Shown here one piece after another: positions 19,312 to 62,575 of a stretch of DNA of 64,000 nucleotides. Source of the DNA: Minisyncoccota bacterium (GTDB lineage: Bacteria > Patescibacteriota > Minisyncoccia > Phycocordibacterales > XYD1-FULL-46-19). The stretch's first letter is position 1. The number at the start of each line of letters is the position of its first letter. The stretch is taken from contig JBAZRF010000003.1 in NCBI GenBank assembly GCA_041663165.1, positions 11,364-75,363 of the forward strand. The letters run 5' to 3'. A program made the position numbers and the translations under genes. A model generated the notes under the pieces. That model did not search any database. It saw only the letters and a program-made list of their open reading frames with translations, and was not told the origin of the DNA.

Positions 19312-19323
19312 CCTTTCACCATA

Positions 19324-19360: not shown

Positions 19361-19385
19361 AGAATTGATCCGAATAAACCCGCTT

Positions 19386-19751: not shown

Positions 19752-19756
19752 CGTTT

Positions 19757-20116
19757 TTATCCCCTAACTTTTTTGTAAATGATTATTCCCAAACTGACGA
19801 AGAGAAAGATGGCACTTAAAAACCAGGTTAGAATATATTTATTTATACAAATCTCAAAAAAACCGTGGCAGTAATCGGGAGTGAAAACCTCGGCCAGAAC
19901 TGATAAGGGGATAAAGATGATGGCAAATTTACTCCATGTTTTGAATATTTGGTTAGAAAAAAACAAAAGGATGACTAGAGTTAAAATTATTATTGGTGTT
20001 GCTATAGCTAAGGGTAAACCAAGAGAAAAAGCACTAGATTTTAACCAAAAATCCGCCCAAACGTAAAGAGCTAGACAAATAGCGATAAACACCCAAATAG
20101 TTTTTTTGTGAGACAT
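19757..20116 (-). CDS. Hypothetical small membrane protein (119 aa)
   Basis: Hydrophobic ORF. Confidence 0.45.
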   Translation of the reverse strand: MSHKKTIWVFIAICLALYVWADFWLKSSAFSLGLPLAIATPIIILTLVILLFFSNQIFKTWSKFAIIFIPLSVLAEVFTPDYCHGFFEICINKYILTWFLSAIFLFVSLGIIIYKKVRG

Positions 20117-20117
20117 T

Positions 20118-45382: not shown

Positions 45383-47137
45383 ATGAATAAGAAACTTTTA
45401 ACTAGTCTGCAATTAGGCCTAGTTTTGTTCGTTGTTTTGGCCATTTCCTCGTCGTTCTTAATTAGTAGCCCGATAAAAGCCTTAGCCGATGCCTCGACAA
45501 CCAAAATCGGCGATGGATCTGTTCCGGCTACTGAAACTGGTTACGGATCATCGTACTCAGGAGCGGGGATGATGTTAATGAGTCTGCCTTTAGTTTTGGC
45601 CCCCATACCGCCGGCCAATGCCGGTATCCTTACTTACTTAATTTCCGAACCAATTATTTCCCCGGACAATTCAACGAGTGTTGGAACCAAGGACAACACC
45701 TCAATTGATATTGCTTTCTCATCCCAGGTGGATACGGTTGATCTAGATATTGTCGACGGGTTAGATAATTTAATTAAACACCTCTACACTGGCAATAACG
45801 TCACCGATCCATTGCCTAAACCATGGGACGGAAAAGATGGATCTAGCAATTTTGTTTCTGATGGGACCTATACAATAAAGATAACTTATTCTGACGCCGG
45901 CGGAACAACGATTGATACCAGCCGTACGATTATTGTCGACAACACCTCACCCGTTGTTACTCAAGAAATTATTCCGTCAGCAGCAACGACGACCGGTTTG
46001 GTGATCGGTGGCAACTCGATTGCTCAAGCTGAAGTGGTTGAGACCGGTTCGGGCATTAGTGGCGGATGTTTCTTTACTTTTGATGGTGCTTCAACTTGGA
46101 ATTATGATCCGGCCGCCTTTGACTCAGTAACTAGCCGCTGTTCGATTGCCCATACAATAATCCCAGACGGCAGCAGTGTCGATATCAAGGTTTTTGATGT
46201 CGCCGGTAATCAGTCAACAGTCACTAATCCCTATATTAACGTCGTTTGGGATAAAGAAGCCCCGACTGTTGGCCCAATCAGTTTTAGCCCATCCGAGGTA
46301 ATTGGTTCTGATCTCTATCTTTCGCCACTAACAACAATTTCTGCAACAGCAACCGATATCGGCGGGATCGGAGTTAATCCTAACTCTTGTCGTTATTCGA
46401 TTGACGGCGGTTCTTCTTGGGTATTAGCGACGACGGCTTATAATTCGACGACTAATAGTTGCGTCATAAATAGTATTGATACTTCAATCGCTTCGGGTGT
46501 TACTGTGTCGATTGACGATTTGGCGGCCAATAGCTTTGATACCTCGAGTTCTTGGGTGCCGGTTAAAGTTGATACTGTCGTCCCAGTGATAACTTTACTA
46601 GGTGATGCCACGGTTAACCTTAAAGTCAGCGACACTTACGTTGAGGCTGGTGCCACAGCTCTCGATAGTCTCGATGGCGATATAACTTCTCGAATAGTTA
46701 CTACCGGTTTGGTTAATACTAGCGTTGTCGGTACCTATATTCTAACCTATAACGTTAGTGACGATCTGGGTAATGTTGCAACGGCAGTAACCAGGACGGT
46801 TAAAGTTGAACCGGCACCAGGCTCTTCTAGTCATACCGGCGACTATATTCCCGGTTGGGGACCGGGTCGCCAAATCAGGGGACAAGTTCTTGGAACTTCA
46901 ACTGCTAAAATTATTAGGGCATCAACAACCAATACGACCGAGTTGGCTAGGCAAAAAAAGATTCAGCAGCTGAAGAAAAAATTGAACGATCTAAAAGTTC
47001 AAAGATATAACCTTAAGCATTCTCAAGCGGCCCTAGCTGCTCAGGGGGGAGCGAATACTACAATAGATAATCCTAATCTCAAACCAACTTCGACCGCGTC
47101 AACCACCCCAGCTAAGCCCTTTTGGAAATTCTGGTAA
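45383..47137 (+). CDS. Secreted Thr/Ser-rich surface protein with Ig-like (DUF5011/HYR-like) domain(s)
   Basis: Signal peptide. Segment VITLLGDATVNLKVSDTYVEAGATALDSLDGDIT...TYILTYNVSDDLGN is typical of DUF5011 Ig-like domains. Confidence 0.5.
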   Translation: MNKKLLTSLQLGLVLFVVLAISSSFLISSPIKALADASTTKIGDGSVPATETGYGSSYSGAGMMLMSLPLVLAPIPPANAGILTYLISEPIISPDNSTSVGTKDNTSIDIAFSSQVDTVDLDIVDGLDNLIKHLYTGNNVTDPLPKPWDGKDGSSNFVSDGTYTIKITYSDAGGTTIDTSRTIIVDNTSPVVTQEIIPSAATTTGLVIGGNSIAQAEVVETGSGISGGCFFTFDGASTWNYDPAAFDSVTSRCSIAHTIIPDGSSVDIKVFDVAGNQSTVTNPYINVVWDKEAPTVGPISFSPSEVIGSDLYLSPLTTISATATDIGGIGVNPNSCRYSIDGGSSWVLATTAYNSTTNSCVINSIDTSIASGVTVSIDDLAANSFDTSSSWVPVKVDTVVPVITLLGDATVNLKVSDTYVEAGATALDSLDGDITSRIVTTGLVNTSVVGTYILTYNVSDDLGNVATAVTRTVKVEPAPGSSSHTGDYIPGWGPGRQIRGQVLGTSTAKIIRASTTNTTELARQKKIQQLKKKLNDLKVQRYNLKHSQAALAAQGGANTTIDNPNLKPTSTASTTPAKPFWKFW

Positions 47138-47398: not shown

Positions 47399-47471
47399 GG
47401 GCCATTAGCTCACTTGGTAGAGCGCTTCCATGGCATGGAAGAGGTAAGCGGTTCGATCCCGCTATGGTCCA
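47399..47471 (+). tRNA. tRNA-Ala (anticodon GGC)
   Basis: Cloverleaf drawn by hand. G3:U70 identity pair, anticodon loop ATGGCAT, T-loop TTCGATC. No encoded CCA. Confidence 0.75.
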
Positions 47472-47539
47472 CTGCTCCGCTCCCGCTACGCAGTACACGC
47501 ACTTTCTAAATTTATCGACATAGTGCAAACACGACTACT

Positions 47540-47612
47540 GGGCCGTTAGCTCATCTGGTAGAGCGCCTGCTTTGCAAGCAGGAGGTAAGCGGTTCGAGTC
47601 CGCTACGGTCCA
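47540..47612 (+). tRNA. tRNA-Ala (anticodon TGC)
   Basis: G3:U70 pair, anticodon loop TTTGCAA, T-loop TTCGAGT. No encoded CCA. Confidence 0.8.
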
Positions 47613-47678
47613 CATAGGGCAAATTTCGAGTTTTGTGCTATAATATATTTAATTAATAATTAACCAACATTAATTTTT

Positions 47679-48730: not shown

Positions 48731-48961
48731 ATGTTTAAAGAATTCTTTGTTAAGCGTGAATTAAAGAAGATGGGCGTATCTGGTGAGCAATTAGATGCCA
48801 TGATGAAGGTGGTTAAGGGTAATCCCGGTCTCTTTCAAAAACTCGGAGCTGAAATTGAAGAAAAGGTAAGCAAAAATAAAATGGGTCATCAGGAAGCGGC
48901 TTTAGCGGTGACAACTAAATATCGAGCGGAGCTTGCTAAAATCTTTAGTCAAAAATCTTAA
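48731..48961 (+). CDS. Hypothetical 76-aa protein
   Basis: ORF only. Confidence 0.3.
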   Translation: MFKEFFVKRELKKMGVSGEQLDAMMKVVKGNPGLFQKLGAEIEEKVSKNKMGHQEAALAVTTKYRAELAKIFSQKS

Positions 48962-49380
48962 ATCGCTTGACGTGCTATCTTAGAGAAAATAAAGGTTCGA
49001 TAAATAAGATAATTGGCAATCGCCAAACCGGCGAGAATAATCACTTGATCTAGTAGATACCAAATATGCAACTGGTCGTTTAAGATGTACATGGCCAGGG
49101 CTGAGACAACGAGATTGAGGCTGGTGATAGAAAAATAAAAAAAAGCCTGTTTAAGCCAACGGGGGGACTGATCTTTAAAAGTCCAGATTTTATGAAGAGT
49201 AAAACCAATCGTGCCCGAAATTAAACTCGCACCAATCGTCCCCCAGACTGGCCAGAGGCCCAAACCGCTCACCAAAACAAAAATAGTCAGGAGCGAAGAA
49301 GCCGACGAGATACTTCCGGCGATTAAAAATTTAATGGGCTCAAAAATTGACCAATCTGGGTCATTTTTAAAATTAAACAT
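48958..49380 (-). CDS. GtrA-family small membrane protein (polyprenyl-phosphate-sugar translocation-associated)
   Basis: 4 TM helices and a KIWTF motif typical of GtrA-like proteins. Confidence 0.65.
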   Translation of the reverse strand: MFNFKNDPDWSIFEPIKFLIAGSISSASSLLTIFVLVSGLGLWPVWGTIGASLISGTIGFTLHKIWTFKDQSPRWLKQAFFYFSITSLNLVVSALAMYILNDQLHIWYLLDQVIILAGLAIANYLIYRTFIFSKIARQAI

Positions 49381-49494
49381 GAGTATTAATTGATTAACGG
49401 TCCCGCTATTATAACTCGTAATTTAGTTTGGCTCAAGTTTGGTGCAGGGGGGACTTTTGAACCAAAATGAATTATACTAGGCAATAATCTACCC

Positions 49495-50244
49495 ATGACC
49501 GAATCGTGGCAAAAAGTGTCTGGTCTAAGTTGGACGTTGGCCAAGGCCAATTTTAAATTGCGAACCGAGGGGAGCTACTTGGGTGTTTTGTGGTATTTGC
49601 TCGATCCAGTCTTGCTTTTTGCAATCTTGATCTATGTCTTTGGCTCAAATCTGGGAGCTTCTATTAAGTTTTACCCACTATACTTAATTTGGGGTCTGGT
49701 GATGTTTAATTTCTTTACGACGGTCACGAGTCAAGCAACTTCGGTTATTGTTAATAATGCCCTGTTCATTAAATCAATGAAAATTCGATCGGAGGTTCTT
49801 GTCGTCTCGATTCTACTCCAAACAATCTTTTCGCATCTTTTTGAAATCATCGTTTTGGTTGCTCTGACGGTCTATTTTGGCGCATCACTCTTAAGTTTAC
49901 TTATTTATTTGCCAATTTTTATTTTCTTTTGCGCTCTTACCTTGGGCATATCTTTTTTCTTAGCGGCTTTTGGTGTCTATGTTTCTGATCTAAACAACGT
50001 CTGGAAGTTTTTTACTCAGGCGCTCTTTTTTGCCACGCCAATTTTTTATGCCTCGGCAAAACCCTTGATCCTTTTGCTTAATCCGCTAGCTTCTTTTTTG
50101 GCGATTACTCGGGGTCTGATTATTTATCATGAGTGGCCGGGCCTAAAGATTATTTCTTTATCGGCGATAACCAGCGTCCTCGCCCTTTTTGTCGGCTGGT
50201 ATCTATTTAGTTTGGTTAAAAACAAATTTGCCGAAAATCTATGA
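49495..50244 (+). CDS. ABC-2 type polysaccharide/teichoic-acid exporter permease (Wzm/TagG-like)
   Basis: 6-TM ABC-2 layout. Translationally coupled to the following ATPase gene. Confidence 0.75.
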   Translation: MTESWQKVSGLSWTLAKANFKLRTEGSYLGVLWYLLDPVLLFAILIYVFGSNLGASIKFYPLYLIWGLVMFNFFTTVTSQATSVIVNNALFIKSMKIRSEVLVVSILLQTIFSHLFEIIVLVALTVYFGASLLSLLIYLPIFIFFCALTLGISFFLAAFGVYVSDLNNVWKFFTQALFFATPIFYASAKPLILLLNPLASFLAITRGLIIYHEWPGLKIISLSAITSVLALFVGWYLFSLVKNKFAENL

Positions 50245-50984
50245 GAATTAATTTACAGGGAGTTGGTAAAAAATTTAATCTAAATTTCAAAAAGAGGGAA
50301 GGTATCCTTGCCCGTCTGTTGTCGGTTTTTTCCTTGAGCAAAAACACTAACGATTTTTGGGTTTTTCGCGGAATTGATTTTACGCCCGCCGATGGCCAAA
50401 TTGTTGGCATCATTGGCCGAAATGGTTCAGGTAAATCAACTTTGCTTCGGGTACTGGCGGGAATTTATCAAGCTGATGAGGGAACAGTTAAGTTAAAAGG
50501 TCAGGTGGCATATTTAACCGGATTTGGCCAAGGCTTAATGCCCAAATTAACAATGCGCGAAAATATCTATCTGGTCGGTTCTTTGCTTGGCTTGGGTCAA
50601 AAAGAAATTAAACAGCGTTTTGCGGAGATCGTTGAATTTTCTGAACTGGGTGAATACATTGAAACGCCGGTCTACAAATTTTCCTCCGGCATGGTTTCGC
50701 GACTAAGTTTTTCAACCACGATTTTTTGCTTAAAACATCGCAATCCGGATATTTTGTTAATTGACGAGGCTCTCGAGGCCGGGACTGATTTAAACTTTAG
50801 GAATAAGGCTTTAAATAAGATGGAAGAAATTTTACTCACCGGTGCCAATGTCGTTTTAGTTAGCCATGATTTAGTCATGATTGAGAAGTATTGCCATGAT
50901 GTTATTTGGCTAGACAAGGGGAAAATTGTCAAACAGGGACCGGCTAGCGAAGTGGTCGAGGCTTATGTTAAGGTAAACGAGTGA
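50241..50984 (+). CDS. ABC transporter ATP-binding protein (Wzt/TagH-like)
   Basis: Walker A GRNGSGKST, a signature-like FSSGM, and Walker B LLIDEAL. Confidence 0.8.
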   Translation: MRINLQGVGKKFNLNFKKREGILARLLSVFSLSKNTNDFWVFRGIDFTPADGQIVGIIGRNGSGKSTLLRVLAGIYQADEGTVKLKGQVAYLTGFGQGLMPKLTMRENIYLVGSLLGLGQKEIKQRFAEIVEFSELGEYIETPVYKFSSGMVSRLSFSTTIFCLKHRNPDILLIDEALEAGTDLNFRNKALNKMEEILLTGANVVLVSHDLVMIEKYCHDVIWLDKGKIVKQGPASEVVEAYVKVNE

Positions 50985-53900
50985 ACGGAGAAAAAAGACA
51001 AAAAGTAATTTTGGTTCTTGGTATGCACCGAAGCGGTACCTCGGCCTTGGCCGGCATCCTACAGTTTTTGGGAGTGGACTTGGGTCCCAACCTGATGCCG
51101 GCAAGCGAATTTAATCCTCGCGGCTACTTTGAAGATCTTGATATTGTTGGGATAAACGATAAAATTCTGTCAGCTATTGGTTCTGGTTGGAATGATCTAA
51201 ACGAACTCCCTGATAACTGGCCAGTAAGGTTCCCGTCGGTATTGGCGCTTAAAGAAGATCTAAAGAAAATTATCAGTCGAGATTTTGGGTCTTCATCCAT
51301 TTTTGCCATAAAGGATCCTCGCCTTTGTTTATTGTTACCACTTTATTTTGAGATTTTTCAAGATTTAGCCATCGATTCAAGCTTGGTTCGTATCCAGAGA
51401 GCTCCGGCCGAAGTCGCTTTTTCCTTGGGGCGGTCAGAAAAATTGAATCTGGTTAAAGCGTTACAACTTTATCGTAAGTATCAAAAATATCTGGAAAAAT
51501 ACTTGGTCGGACGCCGAGTCGTTACGGTTGAATTTAACCAACTCTTGAACAATCCGGCCCAGGTAATCTCTTTGATTAAAAATCTAGTTCCCGAAATACC
51601 CTTTGATTATCAGGTACGCCAAAAGGAAATAGATGCCTTTTTAGATTATCAGTTAAAACATTTTGGCCAGCAAAGCCAAGATGATTGCCTGTTTTCGCTA
51701 TTGGATAATATTAATGAAAATGAACAGACCATCGTCTTGACCAATCAAACTATCGAACAAGATAAAAAAAGACTGAACGAGGTACTTAACCAAAGAGAGC
51801 GGTTGCAGCAAGAAAACATAAAAAAAGATGTTGAGATCGCCACCCGGCAAGAACAGCTGGAAGAATTAAAGCAACAAAATCTCGAGCGCGATATCTTTAT
51901 TGAATCTCAACATCAGGAACTAGCCACTATAAAAAGTAGCTTGACCTGGAGAATGCAAAAGGTTGTTGATCGATGGATAAGCCTTTTGCTTAGTCGAAAT
52001 GACGGCCAAAGGGGTCGTTCGCGGGAAGAAATTGCCCGCCAATATTTGATTGGTGAGGGAATTGAAATTGGCGCCCTGCATCAGCCGCTTAAATTGGACC
52101 AAAGTAGGGCCAGGGTTCATTATGTTGATTACCTCGACCAAGAGGGATTAAAAAAAGTTTATCCCGAGATAAACTCTGACAGTATCACCACCCCTGAGAT
52201 CATTGCCAAGGCCGAAGACTTGAGTCCGATTGCCGATAGTAGTCAGGATTTCGTCATTGCCAATCATTTACTTGAACATGTTTCTAATCCAGTCGAAGCG
52301 CTCTCGGAATTCTACCGAGTAACCAAAAAGGAGGGTGGAATCGTTTTTTTAACCCTGCCGAACAGTCGATCCTGTTTTGATTCAGCCAGAGAAATTACCA
52401 GATCCCAACACTTCAGAGACGATTTTGATCTTAATAACAGCGAACGAAAAGTTGTAGATCTTGGTCATTATTTAGACTGGGCAATCAACGTCTTAAAAAT
52501 TCAAAATATTGATGAGGCTAATAGAATTGCCCATGAACTAAGCGCTAAGGGGTATCCAATTCATTTCCATGTCTTTAGTTATCAATCGGCCATTGATTTT
52601 ATCAATAGTCTAGAAATTAATTATGGTTTTGGTTGGGAAATGATTTATTCGCAAGAAGACAAGGACGAATTCATATTTATTCTTCGTCCCAAAACAGAAA
52701 AGGTAGAAATAGGTTTAACTGAGAATTATCAACCTCTCGTTTTGCCAGCCTGTGTCGAACCGGAAGTTTCCATTATTATCCCCGTCTATAACAAGTTTAA
52801 ATATACCTACCGGTGTCTAAAGTCTCTCCTTGAGGCGGAACCAGGGTTAAAATATGAAGTCATTGTCGCCGACGATGGCTCGACTGATGAGACTCTAAGA
52901 ATAGGGGAATATTTTAGTCAGATCAGAGTAATCAGAAATGAAACAAATCTTAGATTTTTGAAAAATTGTAACAAAGCGGCCCTTGAAGCCAAAGGTAAAT
53001 ATTTACTGTTTCTAAATAATGACACCAAAATACTGCCTGGTGCGATCTCACACTTACTCGCCACGATCAAAAGTAATGAAACAATTGGGGTTGTCGGCGG
53101 TCGGCTAATTTTGCCTGACCAAACCTTACAGGAGGCTGGCGGTATTTTATGGAGCGATGGAACCTGTTTTGGTTATGGCCGTGGCGATGATCCTTTTAAG
53201 CCCGAGTATTCATATGTGAGAGAAATCGATTATTGTTCAGGCGCTCTTCTCTTGACACCAACTGAATTATTTTTAGGACTAGGCGAGTTTGATATCCGTT
53301 TTGCGCCCGCCTATTATGAAGATGCCGATTATTGTACCGCCGTCATTAATAAAGGGTACAAGGTAATTTATCAGCCGTTGGCCAGTGTGATTCATTATGA
53401 ATTTACCAGCCACGGCAAGAGCTCGGCCACTGAACTTCAAAAAAGAAATGGCCAACTCTTTAGAACTAAGTGGCAGGAATATTTGAATTTTAAATATCCG
53501 GCGGATTTAAAAAACACTTTATGGGCGCGAGACAATCAAAATTTTAAAAGTCGGGTCTTGATTATTGATGACCGATTGCCCAATGCTAAACTTGGCGCTG
53601 GCTACCCGAGGGCTAGGGCCATCCTAGATATTCTGCTAGAGCAAAAAAGGTTTGTTACCTTTTTGCCGACAGAAATTAACTACGAAGAGGATATTGATTG
53701 TCTCAGGGAGCTCCGACAATTAAGCGTCGAAATTCTTTGCCAGACCGAGAGAAATCCCTTCAACGCCGCTAATCTCGCAGATCTTTTGGCCAAACGGGAA
53801 GATTTTTACGATCAGATTGTGATTAGTCGACCCGCCAACATGGCCAGGCTGGGGGATCTTATTAGAGGCAAAATCAATAGGGCAAAGACTAAGATAATCT

Positions 53901-56617
53901 ATGATGCTGAAGCCATTTTTGCTCGGCGCGAGGTTTCTCGGCAGCATCTTTTGGGTGGCGGTTTATCAAAAAAGAAGGAAGAAGAAATAATCGAATCGGA
54001 GGTGGCGCTGGCTAAAGACTCAGATCGAATCATCGCTGTATCAGAGAGTGAGAAAGAAGTCTTCCAAGAATATGGCGTAAAAAACGTTTCGGTTCTTGGT
54101 CAAGCCACTGAAGTTAAACTCTCACCAAACCCCTTTGCGTCACGGAAAGATATTTTATTTGTTGGCAGTGTCCATACGGAGGGCGACGATAACCCCAACT
54201 TTGATTCACTGGTTTATTTTATTAAAGAGGTTTTCCCTTTGATCGCCTCACAACTTGACTGCAACTTGCATATTGTCGGTTTAAATAAATCTGAACAACT
54301 AAAGAAATTGCAGTCAGCGAGAATAAAAATTGTCGGTCAGGTTGATAATCTCAACGATTACTATAATAATTGTCGCGTTTTTGTTGCTCCAACCAGATTT
54401 GCTGCCGGGATTCCCTTAAAAGTGGTCAATGCCGCGGCGGCCGGTCTCCCGAGCGTGGTCACCCCCTTGTTGGGCGAGCAATTGGGCTGGGCAGATTCGA
54501 ACGAGTGTTTAATCGGAAGTTTGCCGACGGAATTTGCTGAGCGGGTGGTAACTTTATACCAAACCCCAAAATTGTGGGAAAAAATAAGAACGAACGCAAC
54601 TCTGGCCATAAGTCGGGAATATTCTCTAGAAATCGCTCGACGAAAAATTTCCGAGATTTTTGATTACAAAAGGGACCGAGACCAAACTAGGGCTAAAGAC
54701 TCCGCATTAGCTAAAAACGCCAAGGCCGAATCTTCCCATTGGGATAAAATCAAAAAAGCCATCCTTGTTGTCCGACACTATCCTTATTATGTTGTTAAAA
54801 ATCCTCTTCTGCTCCCGAGATTTTTTCGAATACTTTTTCGCCAAGGTTTGTACCAGGCCTGGCAAAATGCCTATGATTTTCTTCAACTTCAGGCTAGTAA
54901 TAATTTCTTGGCAACAGCAAGCGCTGGCCGGCCCTTCTTGCCTAGTTCTGACTATGATCAAACTGTCAAACTAAAAGAATCTGACCTCGACTTAAAAAAT
55001 CGAGCGTTCAAACAGATTAAGAACTTTTCGCATCTGCCAAAAATCAGTATCCTGATGCCCGTTTGGGACATCTCTCCCAAGCTATTATCGATTACCATCG
55101 AATCCGTTCTTCGCCAGCATTATCCTTTGTTTGAATTGTGTATCGGTAATGGCAGTCAAAATGCCAAAGTCGTCGAATGTCTTAACCGATATGCCCAAAA
55201 AGATAATCGTATCAAGGTTGTTCACCTCGAGAATAATAAAGGCATATCAGGAAACTCTAACGCCGCTTTGGCGCTCGCCACGGGAGAATTCGTTGCCCTT
55301 CTCGATTATGATGATGAATTAAGCCCAGACGCCCTGTTTGAAGTTGCTAAACTTGTCAATCGAAAACCATCGGCCGATTTGATCTATAGCGACGAAGACA
55401 AGATCAATCTTACTGGGCAGTATTGTTATCCATTTTTCAAGCCAGATTGGTCGCCAAGCCTCTTACTTTCAATGAACTATATTTGCCATCTAACGGTCTT
55501 AAGAAGATCTCTTATTAATAAACTTGGCGGGTTACGCGGGAAGTATGATGGAACTCAAGATTATGATTTAGTCCTTCGGGCGACCGAGCTAACAAACCAA
55601 ATTTTTCATATTCCTAAAGTGCTGTATCACTGGCGAATGACGCTAAACTCAACAGCCTATCGAATTGATGCTAAACCGCAGTGTTATATCTTGGCCCATC
55701 AGGCGATCGAAGAGGCTCTGGAGAGAAGAAAGCTTAGGGCCCGAGTGGCCAAAGAGTCCCTCTTCCCGTTTTTTGTCCGCTATGAAATTGCCGCTGAGCC
55801 ATTGGTTAGCATTATCATTCCCACTAGGGATAAAGCTGACTTGTTGGGCCGGTGCCTAACGAGTATTATCAGCAAAACAAGTTATAAAAATTATGAAATA
55901 ATAATTGCCGACAATGATTCGCGAGAGGAAGAAACAAAAAGGTATTTACGCTGGCTCAAAGATAACCATTCACAGGAAATAAAAGTTGTTGAGTACCATA
56001 AAAAATACAATTATTCAGGCATAAACAATTTTGCGGCCGGCTTTGCTCGCGGCGAGATCCTCTTGTTTTTAAATAATGATACCGAAGTGATTAATTCGGA
56101 TTGGCTTACGGCACTGGTCGAGCAGGCCGAATTGCCAGCGGTTGGTGCGGTTGGCGCTAAATTACTCTACGCTAATAATACGATTCAACATGCGGGAGTT
56201 ATTTTTGGTACGGATAACAACGTGACCCACGCCTTTCGTCAATTGCCGGACGGCCAGCAATCTTATTTTTATCAAGCTGAAGTTATTCGTAATTATGGGG
56301 CGGTCACGGCCGCCTGTCTGGCTATTCGCAAGAATGTTTTTGCTGAACTTGGCGGTTTTGACGAGAGTTATGAAGTGCCCTACAGTGATATTGAACTTTG
56401 TTTACAACTTAGAAAAAAAGGGTATCTGATTGTTTACACTCCGCTGGCCAGGCTTTATCATTTCGAGTCGGCAACGCGAGGACTTGAGCCTTGGTATGCT
56501 GATGCCGAGTTATTTTTTAAGCGTTGGGGAGAAATGATTACCACTAAGCCGGATCCATACTACAATCCTAATCTAAGTCTTAATCCGGAGGAGACTTTTA
56601 CTTGGCGGGGTTATTAG
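50981..56617 (+). CDS. Giant multidomain glycan-assembly enzyme (1878 aa): sulfotransferase, coiled-coil, class-I SAM methyltransferase, GT2, GT4, GT2, GT2
   Basis: Sulfotransferase-like GMHRSGTS at aa 14-21. Coiled-coil about aa 240-330. MTase about aa 340-540 (IEIGALHQP...FVIANHLLEH). GT2 VSIIIPVYNKF...ADDGSTDE. GT4 ILFVGSV...VFVAPTRFAAGIP. Third GT2 ISILMPVWD...DYDDEL. Fourth GT2 VSIIIPTRDK...ADNDS. GTG start overlaps the wzt stop (GTGA). Confidence 0.8.
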   Translation: MNGEKRQKVILVLGMHRSGTSALAGILQFLGVDLGPNLMPASEFNPRGYFEDLDIVGINDKILSAIGSGWNDLNELPDNWPVRFPSVLALKEDLKKIISRDFGSSSIFAIKDPRLCLLLPLYFEIFQDLAIDSSLVRIQRAPAEVAFSLGRSEKLNLVKALQLYRKYQKYLEKYLVGRRVVTVEFNQLLNNPAQVISLIKNLVPEIPFDYQVRQKEIDAFLDYQLKHFGQQSQDDCLFSLLDNINENEQTIVLTNQTIEQDKKRLNEVLNQRERLQQENIKKDVEIATRQEQLEELKQQNLERDIFIESQHQELATIKSSLTWRMQKVVDRWISLLLSRNDGQRGRSREEIARQYLIGEGIEIGALHQPLKLDQSRARVHYVDYLDQEGLKKVYPEINSDSITTPEIIAKAEDLSPIADSSQDFVIANHLLEHVSNPVEALSEFYRVTKKEGGIVFLTLPNSRSCFDSAREITRSQHFRDDFDLNNSERKVVDLGHYLDWAINVLKIQNIDEANRIAHELSAKGYPIHFHVFSYQSAIDFINSLEINYGFGWEMIYSQEDKDEFIFILRPKTEKVEIGLTENYQPLVLPACVEPEVSIIIPVYNKFKYTYRCLKSLLEAEPGLKYEVIVADDGSTDETLRIGEYFSQIRVIRNETNLRFLKNCNKAALEAKGKYLLFLNNDTKILPGAISHLLATIKSNETIGVVGGRLILPDQTLQEAGGILWSDGTCFGYGRGDDPFKPEYSYVREIDYCSGALLLTPTELFLGLGEFDIRFAPAYYEDADYCTAVINKGYKVIYQPLASVIHYEFTSHGKSSATELQKRNGQLFRTKWQEYLNFKYPADLKNTLWARDNQNFKSRVLIIDDRLPNAKLGAGYPRARAILDILLEQKRFVTFLPTEINYEEDIDCLRELRQLSVEILCQTERNPFNAANLADLLAKREDFYDQIVISRPANMARLGDLIRGKINRAKTKIIYDAEAIFARREVSRQHLLGGGLSKKKEEEIIESEVALAKDSDRIIAVSESEKEVFQEYGVKNVSVLGQATEVKLSPNPFASRKDILFVGSVHTEGDDNPNFDSLVYFIKEVFPLIASQLDCNLHIVGLNKSEQLKKLQSARIKIVGQVDNLNDYYNNCRVFVAPTRFAAGIPLKVVNAAAAGLPSVVTPLLGEQLGWADSNECLIGSLPTEFAERVVTLYQTPKLWEKIRTNATLAISREYSLEIARRKISEIFDYKRDRDQTRAKDSALAKNAKAESSHWDKIKKAILVVRHYPYYVVKNPLLLPRFFRILFRQGLYQAWQNAYDFLQLQASNNFLATASAGRPFLPSSDYDQTVKLKESDLDLKNRAFKQIKNFSHLPKISILMPVWDISPKLLSITIESVLRQHYPLFELCIGNGSQNAKVVECLNRYAQKDNRIKVVHLENNKGISGNSNAALALATGEFVALLDYDDELSPDALFEVAKLVNRKPSADLIYSDEDKINLTGQYCYPFFKPDWSPSLLLSMNYICHLTVLRRSLINKLGGLRGKYDGTQDYDLVLRATELTNQIFHIPKVLYHWRMTLNSTAYRIDAKPQCYILAHQAIEEALERRKLRARVAKESLFPFFVRYEIAAEPLVSIIIPTRDKADLLGRCLTSIISKTSYKNYEIIIADNDSREEETKRYLRWLKDNHSQEIKVVEYHKKYNYSGINNFAAGFARGEILLFLNNDTEVINSDWLTALVEQAELPAVGAVGAKLLYANNTIQHAGVIFGTDNNVTHAFRQLPDGQQSYFYQAEVIRNYGAVTAACLAIRKNVFAELGGFDESYEVPYSDIELCLQLRKKGYLIVYTPLARLYHFESATRGLEPWYADAELFFKRWGEMITTKPDPYYNPNLSLNPEETFTWRGY

Positions 56618-57704
56618 CCAGAGTGCCAATCAAGGCTTTGATTTTAGCGATAAAGACTTGGGTATCAAATTTTTGGGCTTGTTTTAGGCAGGCCGCTTGA
56701 TAATTTTCGGCTTGCGGGCCAATTTTTTTAATTGCTTCAATTAGCTTGTTACTGTCAATATTGTCGATTAATTTGCCAGTCTCGCCGTCAATCACGCTTT
56801 CTTTATAACCGCCTTCATTAGGGGCAATCACTGGTTTCCCAGCCGCCATCGCTTCGACGACGGTCATCCCAAAATCTTCATCTTGGGCCGTGGTAATGAA
56901 TCCGCGGCAATTGGCATATAAATCCAACAATTCCTGTCGGCTGACCCAGCTCTTGATCTCAACATTGGCCGGCTGAATCCTCTTAATATAATCGGCATAT
57001 TGCTGAAAATGCCGAGACTGTTCATAACTGCCCACTAAAATTAACTTTTCATTCGGCAAAGCGGAAAAAGCCTTCATTTGTAAATCTACTCGTTTGTGGC
57101 CAATCAATCGGTTAACGCTTAGCCAAAAATTACCATTTGGTTTGCCGTAATAGTCTTTGGTCTCAATCGGCGGATTGATAATGGTTGCCTCTCGGTTCAA
57201 GTATTTGGTCAAACGATTTTTGGTATTCTGCGAATTGCAGGCAATCAGGTCAACGCGCTTAATATACTTTCGATTGTAATAACGATTAAGTTTAACCCAA
57301 AGATCAAAGATTGGTCGCGCCCAGACCGGGACGGTGTTCTTGCGCGTATATTCATAAAGGTCCCAAATTTCACGGATCGGTGAGTGAACATACCACAAAT
57401 TGGGGTAATTATTAACTGCTCCCGCCATCGCCCAGTCGCCGCTGATAATGAAAAAATCGTATTGGTCGCGCAGGTTTAAATGGCGAAAACGCCAGAGCGA
57501 AAATTGTTGTTTAAATGGGGCGTTGACTGGTACGTGGCCAATCGACTTGACAGTTACATCGGCAAAGCCCATCTTGGCAATTTTCTCAATATCAACATTG
57601 GTTGAATAGATGTCCGCTTTAAGTTCGCGGGCCAAGGTCAGGCTCAAGATCTCGGCGCCGCCGATATTGTCCATGAAGTTATGAAAGATGGCGATTTTTT
57701 TCAT
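56598..57704 (-). CDS. Glycosyltransferase family 4 (GT-B, retaining)
   Basis: Glycos_transf_1-like C-terminal region (GFITTAQDEDFGMTVVEAMAAGKPVIA). Confidence 0.75.
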   Translation of the reverse strand: MKKIAIFHNFMDNIGGAEILSLTLARELKADIYSTNVDIEKIAKMGFADVTVKSIGHVPVNAPFKQQFSLWRFRHLNLRDQYDFFIISGDWAMAGAVNNYPNLWYVHSPIREIWDLYEYTRKNTVPVWARPIFDLWVKLNRYYNRKYIKRVDLIACNSQNTKNRLTKYLNREATIINPPIETKDYYGKPNGNFWLSVNRLIGHKRVDLQMKAFSALPNEKLILVGSYEQSRHFQQYADYIKRIQPANVEIKSWVSRQELLDLYANCRGFITTAQDEDFGMTVVEAMAAGKPVIAPNEGGYKESVIDGETGKLIDNIDSNKLIEAIKKIGPQAENYQAACLKQAQKFDTQVFIAKIKALIGTLANNPAK

Positions 57705-57706
57705 CG

Positions 57707-59050
57707 TTAAGAATTTTTAAACCCATTAATTTTTTTCCATCTCAAGACTTCTACGACCTTACTGTCCAGAAATTTTTCTTCGGGGAAGAGGGGGGCGATT
57801 TTGTAGCACTGCCCAACATCTTCCTGCTTAATGTTGGTGTAGCAACCAAGAGCTCTTTGCCCGTTTACTTTTTGATCGTTTGCCCATTTGATAGGCCAAA
57901 CGCTGAACATAAGAAAACTGCCGACCATAAAAGCGAATAAGACCATTTTAAACATCCACCCTTTTTTAAAATCGGCAAAAACAAAAAACAATCCCAAGGG
58001 GAGCAACATTGAAAAGGTTATGTAGCGATAACTTAAGCCCTGAGTAAGGCCAAAGGATGACCTGCCCAGTGCTAAGGTTAAGATAAAGAGTACCCCGAAA
58101 ATTATCAAAACTAAACCCACCAAGCAGTTCTTGTTTAGTCCGGGTTTGAATATTCGATAGATAGCCAGAACTAAAAATACCAATAAGACGAATAACAAAA
58201 TATAGTTAACAAAATCGTTTCTTAAATAAAAAAAGCCACCGCTTAGAGTGGTTGAAAAATATTTTAGAATTGGCAAAGCATCGGCGCTAAGCTTAGTCTG
58301 AAAATCCTGAACATAGCCGATAAAGTAAGAGACAATAATTAAGATATTCGCCAAACCGGCAAACATGATTACTCGCCGCTCCTTCTGATTTTTAAAATAA
58401 TCAAAGAGCGCTAGGCCGATGGTTATTAGGGGTAAGAATAAGCCATGGAAGCTAGAGTAACTGCTTAGAAAAGCGATAATTGTTAAAATTGAATATCGCC
58501 AATCGGTTGATTTTATTTTCAACATAGCGACGAGCCACAGACTGAGAAAGAAAAAGGGCAGGATGAACGAAATTTGAAAGCCCCAAATCAGATTTTCTAC
58601 CTGAAAGATGTTTAAAACGAGAAAGGGAATAAAAATATCGAGCCACTCTAATTTCTGGCTGGCTAGATATTTTGCGTAAGTAAGTAGCCCGGCCGAAGCA
58701 ATCAATAAGAAAGAGATAAATTTTATTTCAAGTAATTGGCTCCAGTTAGAAAAAGATGCCAAAAATTTAATAATGAGCAATCCCACTCCGATTCGGTGCT
58801 CATTATGCTGATAAAAAAACAATTGCCAAAAATTATAATGGGTTTTGTCAGTAATTATGTCGGCTAAACTCCACTGGTCCAAATAGGGGATATCCACGGC
58901 TCGGCTGGCGATAAAAAAGGCAAAGCTATAAACGATGGCGGTAAAACCGGCCAGCAAAAATACTTTTATAAATTTTTCTTCGCCAAACAATTCAATAAAT
59001 TGAAGGCTATATTTTTTTATTTTTTGTACCACAAGCAGCCCTGTTTTCAT
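57707..59050 (-). CDS. Polytopic membrane protein (447 aa), possible GT-C-type glycosyltransferase
   Basis: More than 10 TM helices. Sits among GT2 and GT-C genes. Confidence 0.4.
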   Translation of the reverse strand: MKTGLLVVQKIKKYSLQFIELFGEEKFIKVFLLAGFTAIVYSFAFFIASRAVDIPYLDQWSLADIITDKTHYNFWQLFFYQHNEHRIGVGLLIIKFLASFSNWSQLLEIKFISFLLIASAGLLTYAKYLASQKLEWLDIFIPFLVLNIFQVENLIWGFQISFILPFFFLSLWLVAMLKIKSTDWRYSILTIIAFLSSYSSFHGLFLPLITIGLALFDYFKNQKERRVIMFAGLANILIIVSYFIGYVQDFQTKLSADALPILKYFSTTLSGGFFYLRNDFVNYILLFVLLVFLVLAIYRIFKPGLNKNCLVGLVLIIFGVLFILTLALGRSSFGLTQGLSYRYITFSMLLPLGLFFVFADFKKGWMFKMVLFAFMVGSFLMFSVWPIKWANDQKVNGQRALGCYTNIKQEDVGQCYKIAPLFPEEKFLDSKVVEVLRWKKINGFKNS

Positions 59051-59793
59051 TGTTTTTTATAATCTCCCTGGGATAGCCATTTTTCTAATAGGCAATAAAG
59101 AATAATGAAAAAATAGCGACTGCCCATTTCCTTTATTCGCAATTTGCTCTGGCCGGCCTGGCGATTTGTCCAACAATTAGGCACTATGGCGTAAGTATAG
59201 CCACGAACAATGGCCTTAAGCGGCAGCTCAACCGTTAAGTTAAAATGGTTGCTGAGAAATGGTCTTAAACCTTCAATTACCTCTCGCCGGTAAAGTTTAA
59301 AAGCGTTGGTTGTATCGTTATACTTGATTCCAAACAAAAGTTTAATCAAGTTATTAGTCAACCGGTTCAGATAATATTTAAATTTGGGATAACCGATAAC
59401 CTGGCCGCCAGATATAAATCTTGAGCCAAAGACGCAATCGTAGCCCTCCTCAATTTTCTGATAATATTTTACCAAGTCCTCGGGTCGATCGGAAAGGTCA
59501 GCCATAACGATCGCTACGTAATTACCGGAAAAGTTATCCAAACCCTTTCTGACCGCTAAACCAAAGCCGTTAGGAAGGGGTTTATTAAAATACCTAAGCT
59601 CAATTATTTCTAGCGACAATTCCTCAAGAATTTTTTCTGTTTGATCAGTACTATTATCGTTGACGATGATAATTTCATGGTCAATAAGGGCTTTTTTTAA
59701 TTCGTCGTGAAAGGCGCGAATAGTTTTTGCAATACTGCCACTTTCGTTGTGGGCCGGGATGATGAGGGACAGTTTTTTTGTTGGGCTCGGCAT
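59047..59793 (-). CDS. Glycosyltransferase family 2 (polyprenyl-phosphate sugar synthase, DPM1-like, soluble)
   Basis: LSLIIPAHNE...IIVNDNSTD...DxD-like MADLSD. Confidence 0.75.
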   Translation of the reverse strand: MPSPTKKLSLIIPAHNESGSIAKTIRAFHDELKKALIDHEIIIVNDNSTDQTEKILEELSLEIIELRYFNKPLPNGFGLAVRKGLDNFSGNYVAIVMADLSDRPEDLVKYYQKIEEGYDCVFGSRFISGGQVIGYPKFKYYLNRLTNNLIKLLFGIKYNDTTNAFKLYRREVIEGLRPFLSNHFNLTVELPLKAIVRGYTYAIVPNCWTNRQAGQSKLRIKEMGSRYFFIILYCLLEKWLSQGDYKKQ

Positions 59794-59797
59794 AATT

Positions 59798-60943
59798 TTA
59801 ACGGTTTTTGATGCCCAGGATACTTAGCATAAAAGAGGAAAAGATAGTTTGTAAACCAAGAAAAACCAGGGTTTGCGCCACAATCAAGTTTTTGACTTCA
59901 TCGAGAGAGCTGAAGCTTGAATCATACCAGCGCCAAAAAACTAGACTCATAACAATTATTCCGACTAAGGCCAAACCGATGCCAACCAAGGAGGCCCGCT
60001 CGATACTTAGATGCTTGTAAATTTTCTCTAGCCACGGCGATGGCTCGCCTAAATGAACGTGGGCATAAGTTCGGGCAAAAACGGTGAAGATTATTAATTG
60101 ATAGCCGATGAGTAAAAGAAGTGAGGCGCCAAACATTGGGTGATAATAAAAACGTAAATTGTTCAAGCTGAGCTGGTCAAAATAGAGAAGAATTGTTGTC
60201 AGTAATCCGACCAGAGCCAAAACAATGCCCGGTAATAAGAACAAGAGGGTCGGGCTATAAAGCAAGAGAAATCTCAGGTGTCGCCAGCCGTCAGGAATGG
60301 TCCGCAGTTTGGATTCACCTTGTCGCCGGGCATAATTGATCGGCAACTCAACAATTTTCAAATTTTTCTTGCCGGCTTTAATCATCATCTCTGAGGCAAA
60401 CTCCATGCCAGTGGTTCTTAAATCTAACCGATTGAGCGCGGCGCGCGAAATAGCCCGTTCGCCCGAGTGGATGTCGTTAATCTTCAATCCAAAAAATATT
60501 TTGGTTAAGAAAGCAAAGATGATTCGGCTCAAATAACGATGAGAGGTGGGCATGGCGCCGGACTCGATTTGGCCGGCAAAACGATTGCCGATTACTAAAT
60601 CAGCGCCACTCTGCAATTCTCTTAAAAATTTTGGCAGCTCATCAAAATCATAAGTGCCATCAGCATCAGCCATAAAGATATATTGTCCGCGAGCGGCTTT
60701 AAATCCTTCAAGATAAGCATTGCCGTAACCGTCTTTGTCGTGTTTAACTAAAACCACTCCGGCCTCACGAGCAATTTGCGGTGAACGGTCGGTTGATGAA
60801 TCAGCCACAATAATCTCGGCTGATAAATTATTTTGGGCAATTACTCTCTTGGCTTTGGCAAGACAACTAGCCAATGACGTTTCTTCGTTGCGGCACGGCA
60901 AAACAATGCTAACAAGAACTTTTTCTTCAGAGAAAGTAGACAT
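59798..60943 (-). CDS. Glycosyltransferase family 2 with C-terminal TM helices (GtrB/ArnC-like polyprenyl-phosphate glycosyltransferase)
   Basis: VSIVLPCRNEE...VADSSTDRS...ADADG DxD motif, followed by 3-4 C-terminal TM helices. Confidence 0.75.
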   Translation of the reverse strand: MSTFSEEKVLVSIVLPCRNEETSLASCLAKAKRVIAQNNLSAEIIVADSSTDRSPQIAREAGVVLVKHDKDGYGNAYLEGFKAARGQYIFMADADGTYDFDELPKFLRELQSGADLVIGNRFAGQIESGAMPTSHRYLSRIIFAFLTKIFFGLKINDIHSGERAISRAALNRLDLRTTGMEFASEMMIKAGKKNLKIVELPINYARRQGESKLRTIPDGWRHLRFLLLYSPTLLFLLPGIVLALVGLLTTILLYFDQLSLNNLRFYYHPMFGASLLLLIGYQLIIFTVFARTYAHVHLGEPSPWLEKIYKHLSIERASLVGIGLALVGIIVMSLVFWRWYDSSFSSLDEVKNLIVAQTLVFLGLQTIFSSFMLSILGIKNR

Positions 60944-60945
60944 TT

Positions 60946-62433
60946 TTATTTTATTTTTACAACCGAAAAAAGACTGCTACTTTTTGACTGCCGGAGCACC
61001 TTAAGTCCCGGGCAGTCAAGGGTTTTCATTGTTCTTGGCCAATAAATGATTGTCGCCCCAGTTGATTCTATTATCTTTTGCTTCTGTTCGCAATTACTTG
61101 GCCGATAAAAATTTTCTACGGTTTTGCGGCTACCGTAAAAATTTATTGCTCCGACCGGTTCGTGGTCGGTTAGGGCAACTAGGGCTGTACCAAATGGCAG
61201 CGTCCCCATCACAATTGTTTTTGGTTTTTGAGCAAGAAATTGAATCGCTTCGTAATCATCGGAATTGATTACTTTATAGAGTCGACTTTCTCTTGGTAAA
61301 TTGAAGTAACCGGCGAAAATGGCTAGAAAACTTGTTACTATTAAAATCCCGCCGATTAATCGGGAGTACCGCTGTTTCTCTGGCCAATTAACTAACCAGC
61401 TCGGTAAAGTTTTTTGGGTGAAATAGTATAGACCATAGCCGCTAAAAAGCGGTATAACCAAGGTTAGGTAATAGAGGTTTCGTTGAAATGGGCTAAAAAA
61501 TGAAAAGCCAACAAAGCGATAGATAAGGGTTGAGAAGATAAGAACAATTGACCAAAGAAGATAAAAAGAATAGTGGCGTTGGTCTTGGTGCAAAAGATAG
61601 CTCATCCCAACTAAGGCCCAAAGCCAAGCCGGCCAGGGATAAAGCTCAAATAATGGATTATTTAGTTCAAGTACGCCCCAACCGCGAGAAAATTTTAATA
61701 GAGAAAAAATCTGCTCTAACGCGGCTATTAAACTTTTACCGAAGACCAAAGCAAAGAAACCGACACCAACAATAAAAATCAATAGAGAAAAAATCCATAA
61801 CCATTTTTCTTTTACCGCCTGACGATAATTAATTAAGTCAAAAATTGCGATGATCGGTAGGGAAAACAGAACTGATAGGGGATGGCAAAAAAGTAGTCCG
61901 AACATGATAAAAAAGCCATAAAATAGGTATCTTCTGTTTGCGGTGAGGATTCCTTCGCTTATAAAGTAGGCATAGAGAAAGATAAAAGGAAAAGAGAAGG
62001 ATAGAGGGGTAAAAAACCACAAACCTGTTAAATTAGCGTTGGTGCGAATAGCCATAAAGAAAAGTAGTGATAACCAGGCCAATAAAAAATTTTTGGAACC
62101 TTTTTGGTAGGCAACAAAAAACAGTGCTAGGCCCGAAAAAATTGCCCACAGGGCGGGGAGAAATTTGTAAATCAAAACGACATTAAAAACTTTTGACAGG
62201 AGAAGAATGATTAGTTGAAAACCGACTTCTAAACCGCTCATTGCTCGTCCCGGCTCGGCTCGCAACCAAGTAAAATAATCAGCGGGATTGGCCAAGCGTT
62301 TGGCTTCGGTCAGGTGATGCCACTCATCGACATGAAAAGGAAAAGGATATGAGAAATGGGGCCAAAAAACCAATAGCCCGAAGGATAGAAGGGTAATTGC
62401 GAGAATAGTCCATCGAAGATTGGTCATAAACAA
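60946..62433 (-). CDS. GT-C fold membrane glycosyltransferase (ArnT/PMT-like, 495 aa)
   Basis: About 12 TM helices with an HVDEW acidic motif in the first extracytoplasmic loop, as in GT39/GT83-type enzymes. Confidence 0.5.
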   Translation of the reverse strand: MFMTNLRWTILAITLLSFGLLVFWPHFSYPFPFHVDEWHHLTEAKRLANPADYFTWLRAEPGRAMSGLEVGFQLIILLLSKVFNVVLIYKFLPALWAIFSGLALFFVAYQKGSKNFLLAWLSLLFFMAIRTNANLTGLWFFTPLSFSFPFIFLYAYFISEGILTANRRYLFYGFFIMFGLLFCHPLSVLFSLPIIAIFDLINYRQAVKEKWLWIFSLLIFIVGVGFFALVFGKSLIAALEQIFSLLKFSRGWGVLELNNPLFELYPWPAWLWALVGMSYLLHQDQRHYSFYLLWSIVLIFSTLIYRFVGFSFFSPFQRNLYYLTLVIPLFSGYGLYYFTQKTLPSWLVNWPEKQRYSRLIGGILIVTSFLAIFAGYFNLPRESRLYKVINSDDYEAIQFLAQKPKTIVMGTLPFGTALVALTDHEPVGAINFYGSRKTVENFYRPSNCEQKQKIIESTGATIIYWPRTMKTLDCPGLKVLRQSKSSSLFSVVKIK

Positions 62434-62575
62434 TATTTTTCATGATAAGACGTTGTTGACAATTTGTCCATAAACTTTAAGGTTATCCACAGCTCGTTAC
62501 TAAAAAATAGTTTTTGCTTTGTTTTTTCTGATATAATGTTACCAGTCTTTATTTTTAGTCTAAATTATAATAAAA

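Follow-up and report, generated by a model that had tools for sequence, protein, structure and literature searches.

A sulfotransferase-fold domain, a predicted coiled coil and four glycosyltransferase modules united in a candidate Wzm/Wzt-dependent glycopolymer synthase of a Paceibacterota bacterium

We analysed a stretch of 64,000 nucleotides from contig JBAZRF010000003.1 of a Minisyncoccota bacterium (positions 11,364 to 75,363 of the forward strand; hereafter the window), in which wzm and wzt, the genes of an ATP-binding cassette (ABC) glycan exporter, stand directly upstream of a giant open reading frame (ORF). Its product of 1878 amino acids (aa) unites, in this order, a sulfotransferase (aa 1-229), a helix (230-337), a class I methyltransferase (348-570), a GT2 glycosyltransferase (GT), a GT4-type GT-B glycosyltransferase, a basic linker and two further GT2 modules. 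We read this protein as a membrane-associated synthase of a Wzm/Wzt-dependent surface glycopolymer, whose coil-borne sulfotransferase would cap the chain and set its length, a reading that we hold with equal measures of confidence and doubt. The coiled-coil polymerase-terminator of ABC-transporter pathways is a known kind of enzyme, and the build of the giant protein resembles that of the polymerase-terminator fusions WbbB and ORF6 of Klebsiella pneumoniae O7, ORF6(O7). The variant seen here, with a sulfotransferase as terminator, a Wzt devoid of a carbohydrate-binding module (CBM), four GT modules and a host from the candidate phyla radiation (CPR), has not been characterised.

The giant ORF comprises 1878 codons from a GTG start, and its translation contains no internal stop over about 5.6 kb. 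The start codon overlaps the stop codon of wzt (GTGA) and is preceded by AAGG 9 nt to its 5' side, while wzm and wzt in turn overlap by 4 nt. These overlaps suggest that the giant ORF may be translationally coupled to wzm/wzt, in agreement with what an earlier note on this DNA had proposed. An identical protein is recorded at NCBI (P0001) as 'MAG: glycosyltransferase [Candidatus Paceibacterota bacterium]'. Exporter genes and modules are listed below; A1 denotes an alignment of 28 sulfotransferase domains from the top homologues, which was used for a profile and for an AlphaFold (AF2) model.

49495..50244, plus strand: wzm, ABC-2 permease of the glycan exporter (Pfam ABC2_membrane, 1.2e-8)
50241..50984, plus strand: wzt, nucleotide-binding subunit, 247 aa (Pfam ABC_tran, aa 43-178)
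50981..56617, plus strand: whole giant ORF, putative multi-module glycan synthase of 1878 aa (ORF list, translation, Pfam)
50981..51667, plus strand: sulfotransferase-fold domain, aa 1-229 (A1 alignment, PDB profile, Pfam Sulfotransfer_3 in the family, AF2, Foldseek)
Within this domain: sulfotransferase motifs, namely the 5'-phosphosulfate-binding (5'-PSB) loop GMHRSGTS (aa 14-21), E51, KDPR (111-114) and the 3'-phosphate-binding (3'-PB)-like residues R140/P142/S148 (A1 invariant columns)
51668..51991, plus strand: long helix, predicted coiled coil, about 16 nm, aa 230-337 (Pro/Gly-free 230-341, heptad register, AF2)
51935..51970, plus strand: post-coil motif SSLTWRMQKVVD, aa 319-330 (family S-x-S/T-W-K/R; regex match at aa 320)
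52022..52690, plus strand: class I methyltransferase dependent on S-adenosylmethionine (SAM), aa 348-570 (Pfam Methyltransf_11, 6.2e-11; AF2 predicted local distance difference test score, pLDDT, >90)
52757..53545, plus strand: GT2 module a, aa 593-855 (Pfam Glycos_transf_2 from aa 597)
53546..54670, plus strand: GT4-type (GT-B) module, aa 856-1230 (Pfam Glyco_trans_1_4 aa 1056-1194, 2.3e-21)
54671..55030, plus strand: basic/aromatic linker before the GT2-GT2 core, aa 1231-1350 (no Pfam match)
55031..55780, plus strand: GT2 module c, aa 1351-1600 (Pfam Glycos_transf_2 and NCBIfam from aa 1353)
55781..56614, plus strand: GT2 module d, aa 1601-1878 (Pfam Glycos_transf_2 stretch from aa 1609; Glyco_tranf_2_3 aa 1609-1830)

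The single 1878-aa polypeptide described in the earlier note is thus borne out by the ORF list and by the uninterrupted translation, and the giant ORF is real in this assembly. When the query is aligned to all fetched proteins, single BLAST alignments cross each domain junction but one, near aa 1235 (the junction between GT2 modules c and d is crossed by 135 of them). The closest relative, P0002, is 64% identical over aa 1-572 and 54% over aa 1238-1878 and has no counterpart of aa 573-1237. In P0027 (1181 aa), sulfotransferase, coil, methyltransferase, GT2 and GT4 run colinearly with aa 15-1215 of the query, and the protein stops at this same junction; the GT2-GT4 unit (aa 586-1227) is shared by P0012, P0025, P0028 and P0077 at 41-44% identity. 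The linker is common to P0002 and P0003 within one alignment (aa 1238/1245-1878). The giant protein therefore reads as a chain of the P0002 type with an inserted GT2-GT4 unit or, equally, as a chain of the P0027 type joined to the common GT2-GT2 core. Given the single unspanned junction, it might be argued that the ORF is an artefact, either an assembly chimera or two neighbouring genes fused by a sequencing error near aa 1235. At this point, however, the DNA is in frame and shows no stop codon, long homopolymer run or start/ribosome-binding-site signal; GC content is even along the giant ORF and the surrounding region, and P0003 displays an analogous continuity of methyltransferase, GT4, linker, GT2 and GT2. 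Moreover, the gene order flanking the giant ORF is identical in a related locus (L082, JGI 3300014204, 7983-21220), which is syntenic gene for gene with window positions 48958-63931 (from the gtrA gene to the PG_binding_1 gene). The giant gene of L082 encodes 1251 aa and lacks the GT2-GT4 unit (query aa 573-1237), a natural insertion or deletion of a module. An artefact is in our view highly improbable. The chimera, which the earlier note had considered as well, was rejected, as independent homologues bridge the other junctions and the unspanned one is in frame.

Direct searches with the N-terminal region were unusable: phmmer with 250-260 aa against the PDB gave no match, and Pfam reached the P-loop only. 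The domain was therefore approached through a profile of its family and a predicted structure. A1 contains 19 invariant columns, all of which are kept in the query (G14-S21, G31, G48, E51, W70, K111-R114, R140, P142 and S148). The only significant matches of the A1 profile in the PDB are sulfotransferases: SULT1A3 (2.5e-5), tyrosylprotein sulfotransferases (TPSTs, about 1e-4) and the sulfotransferase (ST) domain of CurM (6e-4). In these alignments GMHRSGTS corresponds to the G-x-P-R-S-G-T-T loop of the TPSTs, KDPR to KDPF, and R-x-P...S to the 3'-phosphate-binding segment. Pfam Sulfotransfer_3 is matched by 25 of the 28 members (E<=0.01, best 6e-16). The AlphaFold model built on A1 has a pLDDT of 92.4 and a predicted template-modelling (TM) score of 0.89, and sulfotransferases take all of the top 12 places in its Foldseek search of the PDB (among them CurM ST, TPST2, OLS ST, a tick TPST and Stf9; E 1.8e-6 to 9e-5, TM about 0.5), with nucleoside kinases of the same superfamily ranking only below them. 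Profile, model and Foldseek together show that the N-terminal domain has a sulfotransferase fold with intact cofactor-binding motifs, as judged from sequence and model. The earlier note had allowed that the fold might be a different one; its domain calls are correct, here and, by Pfam, for the methyltransferase and the GTs.

The sulfotransferase is followed by a region that is predicted to form a coiled coil, also in line with the earlier note. Residues 230-341 contain no Pro or Gly, the longest such stretch in the first 400 residues, and a single heptad register runs through aa 243-322 with 57% hydrophobic a/d positions (shuffle p = 0.003). An AlphaFold model of aa 225-600 shows a continuous helix at 230-337 (model residues 6-113), a short disordered linker and the methyltransferase fold at about 348-570; at 0.15 nm per residue, the 108 helical residues amount to a calculated length of about 16 nm. 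With the sulfotransferase N-terminal and the GT modules C-terminal to it, the coil separates a distal enzyme from the polymerase part. The helix ends in S-S-L-T-W-R-M, the post-coil motif of the family, which was found after the coil in most homologues by regular expression (regex). Wherever it was found, the sulfotransferase lies N-terminal to it, at a spacing of about 240 to more than 1000 residues. The full motif, S-x-S-W-K/R-x-T-x-P-x-R, marks the end of the coil throughout the family and forms the extreme C-terminus of standalone sulfotransferases (L016, L035, L054, L060 and L064). It is probably the membrane-proximal end of the coil, and it may serve as a membrane anchor or as a docking site for the polymerase.

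In the methyltransferase, the glycine-rich SAM motif G-x-G-x-E-I-G-A is invariant in the corresponding alignment (A2), and the Foldseek matches (Coq5 and others at 1e-8) are generic class I methyltransferases. The WbdD structure is absent both among the listed PDB sequence-profile matches and among the top 50 fold matches, and Pfam finds no kinase domain in the giant protein; a WbdD-like methyltransferase or a hidden kinase was rejected on these grounds. The closest solved relatives of the GT modules are bifunctional GT2 polymerases (K4CP and heparosan synthase), the best one for module c being the chondroitin polymerase K4CP (5.6e-18).

Context was counted in 80 related loci that were fetched. 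In 27 of these, wzm and a strong wzt are neighbours of the sulfotransferase gene and in most cases stand directly upstream of it, as they do in the window. Of the 27 Wzt proteins, 18 have at least 380 aa and nine are shorter (236-333 aa), and the Wzt_C CBM was detected in all nine long ones tested (2e-10 to 5e-29). A coiled-coil terminator and a cap-reading CBM on Wzt are the two hallmarks of capped glycans in characterised systems (PMC11231755). In the small standalone sulfotransferases of such loci, the domain is followed by a charged, helical tail and, at the C-terminus, by the full motif, a layout comparable to the head, ruler and membrane-proximal tail of WbdD. Of the 80 loci, 12 have an adenosine 5'-phosphosulfate (APS) kinase gene no more than 10 kb from the sulfotransferase gene (10 verified with Pfam at 1e-51 to 1e-70; one CysN-CysC fusion), which by a rough estimate is far above chance for a single-copy gene. 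Among the Patescibacteria, the locus of P0003 (L081) has an APS kinase directly downstream of its giant gene, fused to a nucleotidyltransferase-like domain. Taking the Wzt_C domains of the neighbours, the WbdD-like standalone forms and the proximity of APS kinase together, the best reading of the family is that of a chain-end-acting sulfotransferase dependent on 3'-phosphoadenosine 5'-phosphosulfate (PAPS).

Two further arrangements were seen in these loci. In Paenibacillus periandrae (L043, 15964-17820), Wzt is fused to tetratricopeptide (TPR) repeats and a second sulfotransferase (Sulfotransfer_1) in place of the CBM; L062 and L077 encode similarly long Wzt proteins (604-623 aa) with an APS kinase next door. 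Fusions of APS kinase with CTP_transf_like (H-x-G-H), in either order, stand beside sulfotransferase-glycan genes in L081 (6082-6897) and L001 (6203-7189). Speculatively, such a fusion could be a compact bifunctional PAPS synthase, in which the added domain replaces ATP sulfurylase.

Of the 119 other top homologues, 113 contain the sulfotransferase module (G-[MV]-H-R-S-G-T-S, with K-D-P-R about 97 residues further on). A profile search of the domain against 1.84 billion cluster representatives (50% identity) yielded 14,880 clusters at E<=1e-30 and 24,915 at E<=1e-10, with lengths from about 245 to more than 2200 aa. A scan of one genome per species gave at least 595 relatives, distributed over Proteobacteria, Acidobacteriota, Gemmatimonadota, Nitrospirae, Verrucomicrobia, Chloroflexi, Actinobacteria, Paenibacillus and one archaeon. 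Single chains that unite sulfotransferase, coil, methyltransferase and GT2s are frequent (P0002, P0004, a class of about 1295 aa and cyanobacterial proteins). The statement in the earlier note that the combination was not known as a single protein thus reflects what its author knew rather than rarity, P0027 being a further example. Only the exact order of the seven modules sets the query apart, as it was not seen in any other protein examined. The methyltransferase changes place within the family: it precedes the sulfotransferase in the 1295-aa class and in P0004, follows the coil in the query, P0002 and P0003, and lies at the C-terminus in the cyanobacterial proteins.

In the mechanism that we propose, we infer which donor and acceptor are used, that the sulfotransferase terminates the chain, that the coil works as a ruler, and what becomes of the polymer. 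The chain would grow on a polyprenol carrier, on the cytoplasmic face of the membrane, through the GT2-GT2 core (aa 1351-1878) together with the GT2-GT4 unit (aa 593-1230), which could make up to four types of linkage. The sulfotransferase would be held about 16 nm off, at the far end of the coil. Once long enough to reach it, the chain would receive a sulfate from PAPS on its non-reducing terminal sugar, which would block further extension and in this way set the chain length. The methyltransferase would more likely O-methylate residues during or after polymerisation than act as a ruler-gated cap. As the Wzt of the window has no CBM, the cap-gated export of the prototypes would be missing, and Wzm/Wzt would export the chain without reading its cap. 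Once the chain is exported, sugars would probably be attached to it as side chains on the outer side of the membrane by the GtrA-like, GtrB-like and polytopic proteins of the locus, in the manner of wall polysaccharides in Gram-positive bacteria. Terminator-ruler logic of the WbdD/WbbB type is the best reading of the protein, and the context at the level of the family supports it. We further put forward, tentatively and leaning somewhat towards doubt, that sulfation is an uncharacterised chain-terminating chemistry, that sulfotransferase, coil and S-x-S-W-K/R form a portable 'sulfate-cap ruler' found in thousands of clusters from many phyla, and that in the present CPR bacterium, with no cap-reading CBM on Wzt, the ruler alone sets the length of a sulfated and methylated envelope glycan.

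Several observations weigh against this reading. By Pfam, the window Wzt contains neither Wzt_C nor any other C-terminal CBM (247 aa with ABC_tran only), while all characterised terminated systems have a CBM on Wzt (PMC11231755). The Wzt proteins of the related loci L081 and L082 lack a CBM as well. The query alone matches Sulfotransfer_3 with an E-value of 0.011 (16.5 bits against a cutoff of 27, aa 10-28 only), and the literature searched offered no biochemical data on any protein of this sulfotransferase family. The coil is among the shortest of the family and is predicted from a single-chain helix and a heptad register, the oligomeric state lying outside the model. The methyltransferase stands on the polymerase side of the coil instead of its distal side, so a ruler-gated methyl cap, as the earlier note had predicted, is not implied. 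(Since WbdD makes a methyl-phosphate cap, a methyl-sulfate diester was considered as its analogue here but judged chemically unlikely: alkyl sulfate diesters are reactive alkylating agents, and the methyltransferase is not adjacent to the sulfotransferase.) In the GT4 module, the query has V-N-A (aa 1149-1151, 54425-54433) and P0027 has H-H-A where most homologues show H-E-A; the Glu found in four of five aligned homologues is thus an Asn in the query, with all other conserved positions of the unit retained. Finally, the 64-kb window encodes no APS kinase, ATP sulfurylase, nucleotide-sugar, initiating-transferase or ligase gene. A weak APS_kinase match in UvrA was rejected as P-loop noise.

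Given these points, it might be argued that the sulfotransferase acts on internal residues, yielding a sulfated and methylated polysaccharide, with the helix serving for oligomerisation or as a scaffold and with polymerisation coupled to export, the arrangement of Klebsiella O2a, as the control on length. The missing CBM would fit this, since CBM-less transporters go with coupled export in O1 and O2a, where terminal groups play no role in chain length (PMC11231755); the short Wzt proteins in nine of the 27 related loci, the existence of family members of 245-300 aa with little or no tail, and the shifting position of the methyltransferase relative to the coil point in the same direction. Nonetheless, the sulfotransferase is nearly always paired with a following coil and placed on its distal side, most neighbouring Wzt proteins carry the Wzt_C CBM, and an enzyme that modifies internal residues would be expected beside the polymerase and not about 16 nm away, for which reasons we regard internal sulfation as unlikely, though well worth considering. 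It is rather more doubtful still that the domain is inactive here, or repurposed as a structural or binding head in a reduced CPR genome unable to make PAPS, leaving a protein that is polymerase plus methyltransferase. To this one can relate that the query domain is the most divergent member and falls below the Pfam threshold, and that no PAPS-synthesis gene is found in the 64-kb window or within 10 kb in the syntenic L082. Yet all 19 family-invariant residues are kept (including the PAPS-binding loop, KDPR and R140/S148), the identity to P0002 over aa 1-572 indicates purifying selection, and another patescibacterial locus has an APS kinase beside its giant synthase; the absence of PAPS genes, moreover, covers 64 kb of the genome only. 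We thus keep to the coil-borne capping sulfotransferase as the preferred reading.

The earlier note had placed the locus among O-antigen systems, and this frame does not hold. The nearest relatives of the window UvrB are 70-91% identical, the named ones all belonging to Paceibacterota, Vogelbacteria, Nomurabacteria or other Patescibacteria, and P0003, the closest source-named homologue of the giant protein, comes from the metagenome-assembled genome (MAG) of a patescibacterium. CPR cells are regarded as monoderm and are expected to have neither an outer membrane nor lipopolysaccharide (LPS), so the product is expected to be an envelope glycopolymer and not an LPS O-antigen. No LPS or outer-membrane gene is found among the ORFs of the 64-kb window, which does encode peptidoglycan enzymes (an L,D-transpeptidase/carboxypeptidase, Ddl and a PG_binding_1 protein). 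An O-antigen synthase of a diderm could be argued for from the homologues in many diderms (Rudaea, Stenotrophomonas, Pseudomonas and cyanobacteria), some of which JGI labels 'O-antigen biosynthesis protein'. Against the placement of the contig, the origin of P0003, the lack of LPS genes and the presence of GtrA/GtrB/GT-C-type genes, typical of monoderm wall-polymer glycosylation, we find this hardly credible, and it was rejected on taxonomy (UvrB). As a whole, the interpretation in the earlier note is partly supported: its domains, coil and wzm/wzt coupling stand, with terminator-ruler logic as the best reading, whereas the O-antigen frame, the supposed rarity and the likeness to the prototypes in cap-gated export or a methyl cap fail or lose strength.

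The remaining genes of the locus are consistent with further glycosylation of the polymer:

48958..49380, minus strand: GtrA-like small membrane protein, candidate flippase for polyprenyl-phosphate sugars (GtrA_DPMS_TM, 5.5e-17; same position in L082)
56598..57704, minus strand: standalone GT4 glycosyltransferase, 368 aa (Glycos_transf_1, 8.2e-27; conserved in L081 and L082)
57707..59050, minus strand: polytopic membrane protein, 447 aa, candidate extracytoplasmic glycosyltransferase of the GT-C type (no Pfam match; hydrophobic, multi-span; orthologue in L082)
59047..59793, minus strand: GT2 glycosyltransferase, 248 aa (Glycos_transf_2, 5.8e-26)
59798..60943, minus strand: GT2 with C-terminal membrane region, 381 aa, GtrB/CsbB-like candidate polyprenyl-phosphate sugar synthase (Glycos_transf_2, 4.5e-28)
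60946..62433, minus strand: polytopic membrane protein, 495 aa, second GT-C-like candidate (no Pfam match; equivalents in L081 and L082)

The L082 gene at the position of 59798..60943 has the same length and carries GT2_TM_C. By analogy, we infer that the set of gtrA, GT2 and polytopic genes resembles the three-component GtrA/GtrB/GT-C glycosylation of wall polymers in Gram-positive bacteria. The window showed no LytR-CpsA-Psr (LCP) ligase. A protein of 584 aa with Bact_surface_Ig-like and FlgD_ig domains, encoded just upstream of the locus (45383-47137, plus strand), is a possible surface protein and glycan acceptor, and tandem tRNA-Ala genes (GGC and TGC anticodons) lie at 47399-47613 (plus strand), about 1.9 kb upstream of the glycan locus. 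Elsewhere in the window we noted a protein of 539 aa with DIT1_PvcA (isocyanide-synthase / pyoverdine-dityrosine, 6.6e-32; 16806-18425, plus strand), an unexpected enzyme of the secondary-metabolism type for a reduced CPR genome, and two possible host-interaction factors: a protein with an MliC lysozyme-inhibitor domain (24265-25173, plus strand) and a 942-aa LCAT-like lipase (20118-22946, minus strand).

Next to nothing is known about the surface glycans of CPR bacteria, which probably play a part when these cells attach to their hosts; if the portable-ruler reading put forward above is true, no surface polymer of a CPR cell would have been defined before this one. [quoted passage not shown] Because the sulfotransferase holds the terminator position in the family, a sulfate cap would constitute a new termination chemistry, and one that is easily testable. 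In the window, moreover, a ruler goes together with a CBM-less Wzt, whereas in the prototypes studied the ruler and the CBM invariably occur as a pair. Being one GT2-GT4 module apart, L082 and the window form a natural pair for relating module content to glycan structure. No paper tying sulfotransferases to Wzt, coiled-coil termination or CPR was found in the full-text literature searched, which left out one bioinformatic census of terminator chemistries.

Among sulfotransferases, the TPSTs, the ST domains of CurM and OLS, and Stf9 (Sulfotransfer_3-type) share the fold and the aligned motifs of the giant protein's domain, which nonetheless is only 15-17% identical to them at a TM of about 0.5; its acceptor is presumably a glycan terminus, against the peptide or polyketide acceptors of the TPST/CurM type. 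The rhamnose-rich wall polysaccharide and teichoic-acid systems of Gram-positive bacteria likewise concern an ABC-transporter-dependent polymer in a monoderm, although we know of no coiled-coil terminator or sulfotransferase from them. The Gram-positive three-component glycosylation (GtrA/GtcA, CsbB/GtrB and GT-C) has its counterpart in the GtrA-like, GT2-with-transmembrane and polytopic membrane genes of the locus. WbdD/WbdA of Escherichia coli O9a and Klebsiella O3 follow the same logic, in which a coiled-coil ruler stands between a catalytic head and a membrane-proximal tail, and the standalone sulfotransferase-coil proteins of related loci copy the WbdD layout. WbdD is, however, separate from its polymerase and combines a methyltransferase with a protein-kinase-like domain, whereas the giant protein is fused and has no kinase by Pfam.

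Two further comparisons concern one-chain enzymes. ORF6(O7) has an N-terminal methyltransferase and a cryptic kinase, a coiled coil and two C-terminal GT2s, and its cap consists of an anionic group plus a methyl group. Its kinase (phosphate) occupies the place of the sulfotransferase in the giant protein, although its methyltransferase is distal to the coil and that of the giant protein comes after it. O7 requires termination for export; the CBM-less Wzt of the window argues against such gating. WbbB of K. pneumoniae O12 / Raoultella terrigena has an N-terminal terminator, an extended coiled coil and C-terminal polymerising GTs, and it operates with Wzm/Wzt (PMC11231755). Its terminator is a Kdo transferase where the giant protein has a sulfotransferase-fold domain, it has two polymerase GTs against four GT modules and a methyltransferase, the O12 Wzt carries a CBM and that of the window none, and its host is an enterobacterium instead of a CPR bacterium. 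Like WbbB, nonetheless, the giant protein is one chain with an enzyme in the terminator position, a predicted coil and GT modules, encoded together with Wzm/Wzt.

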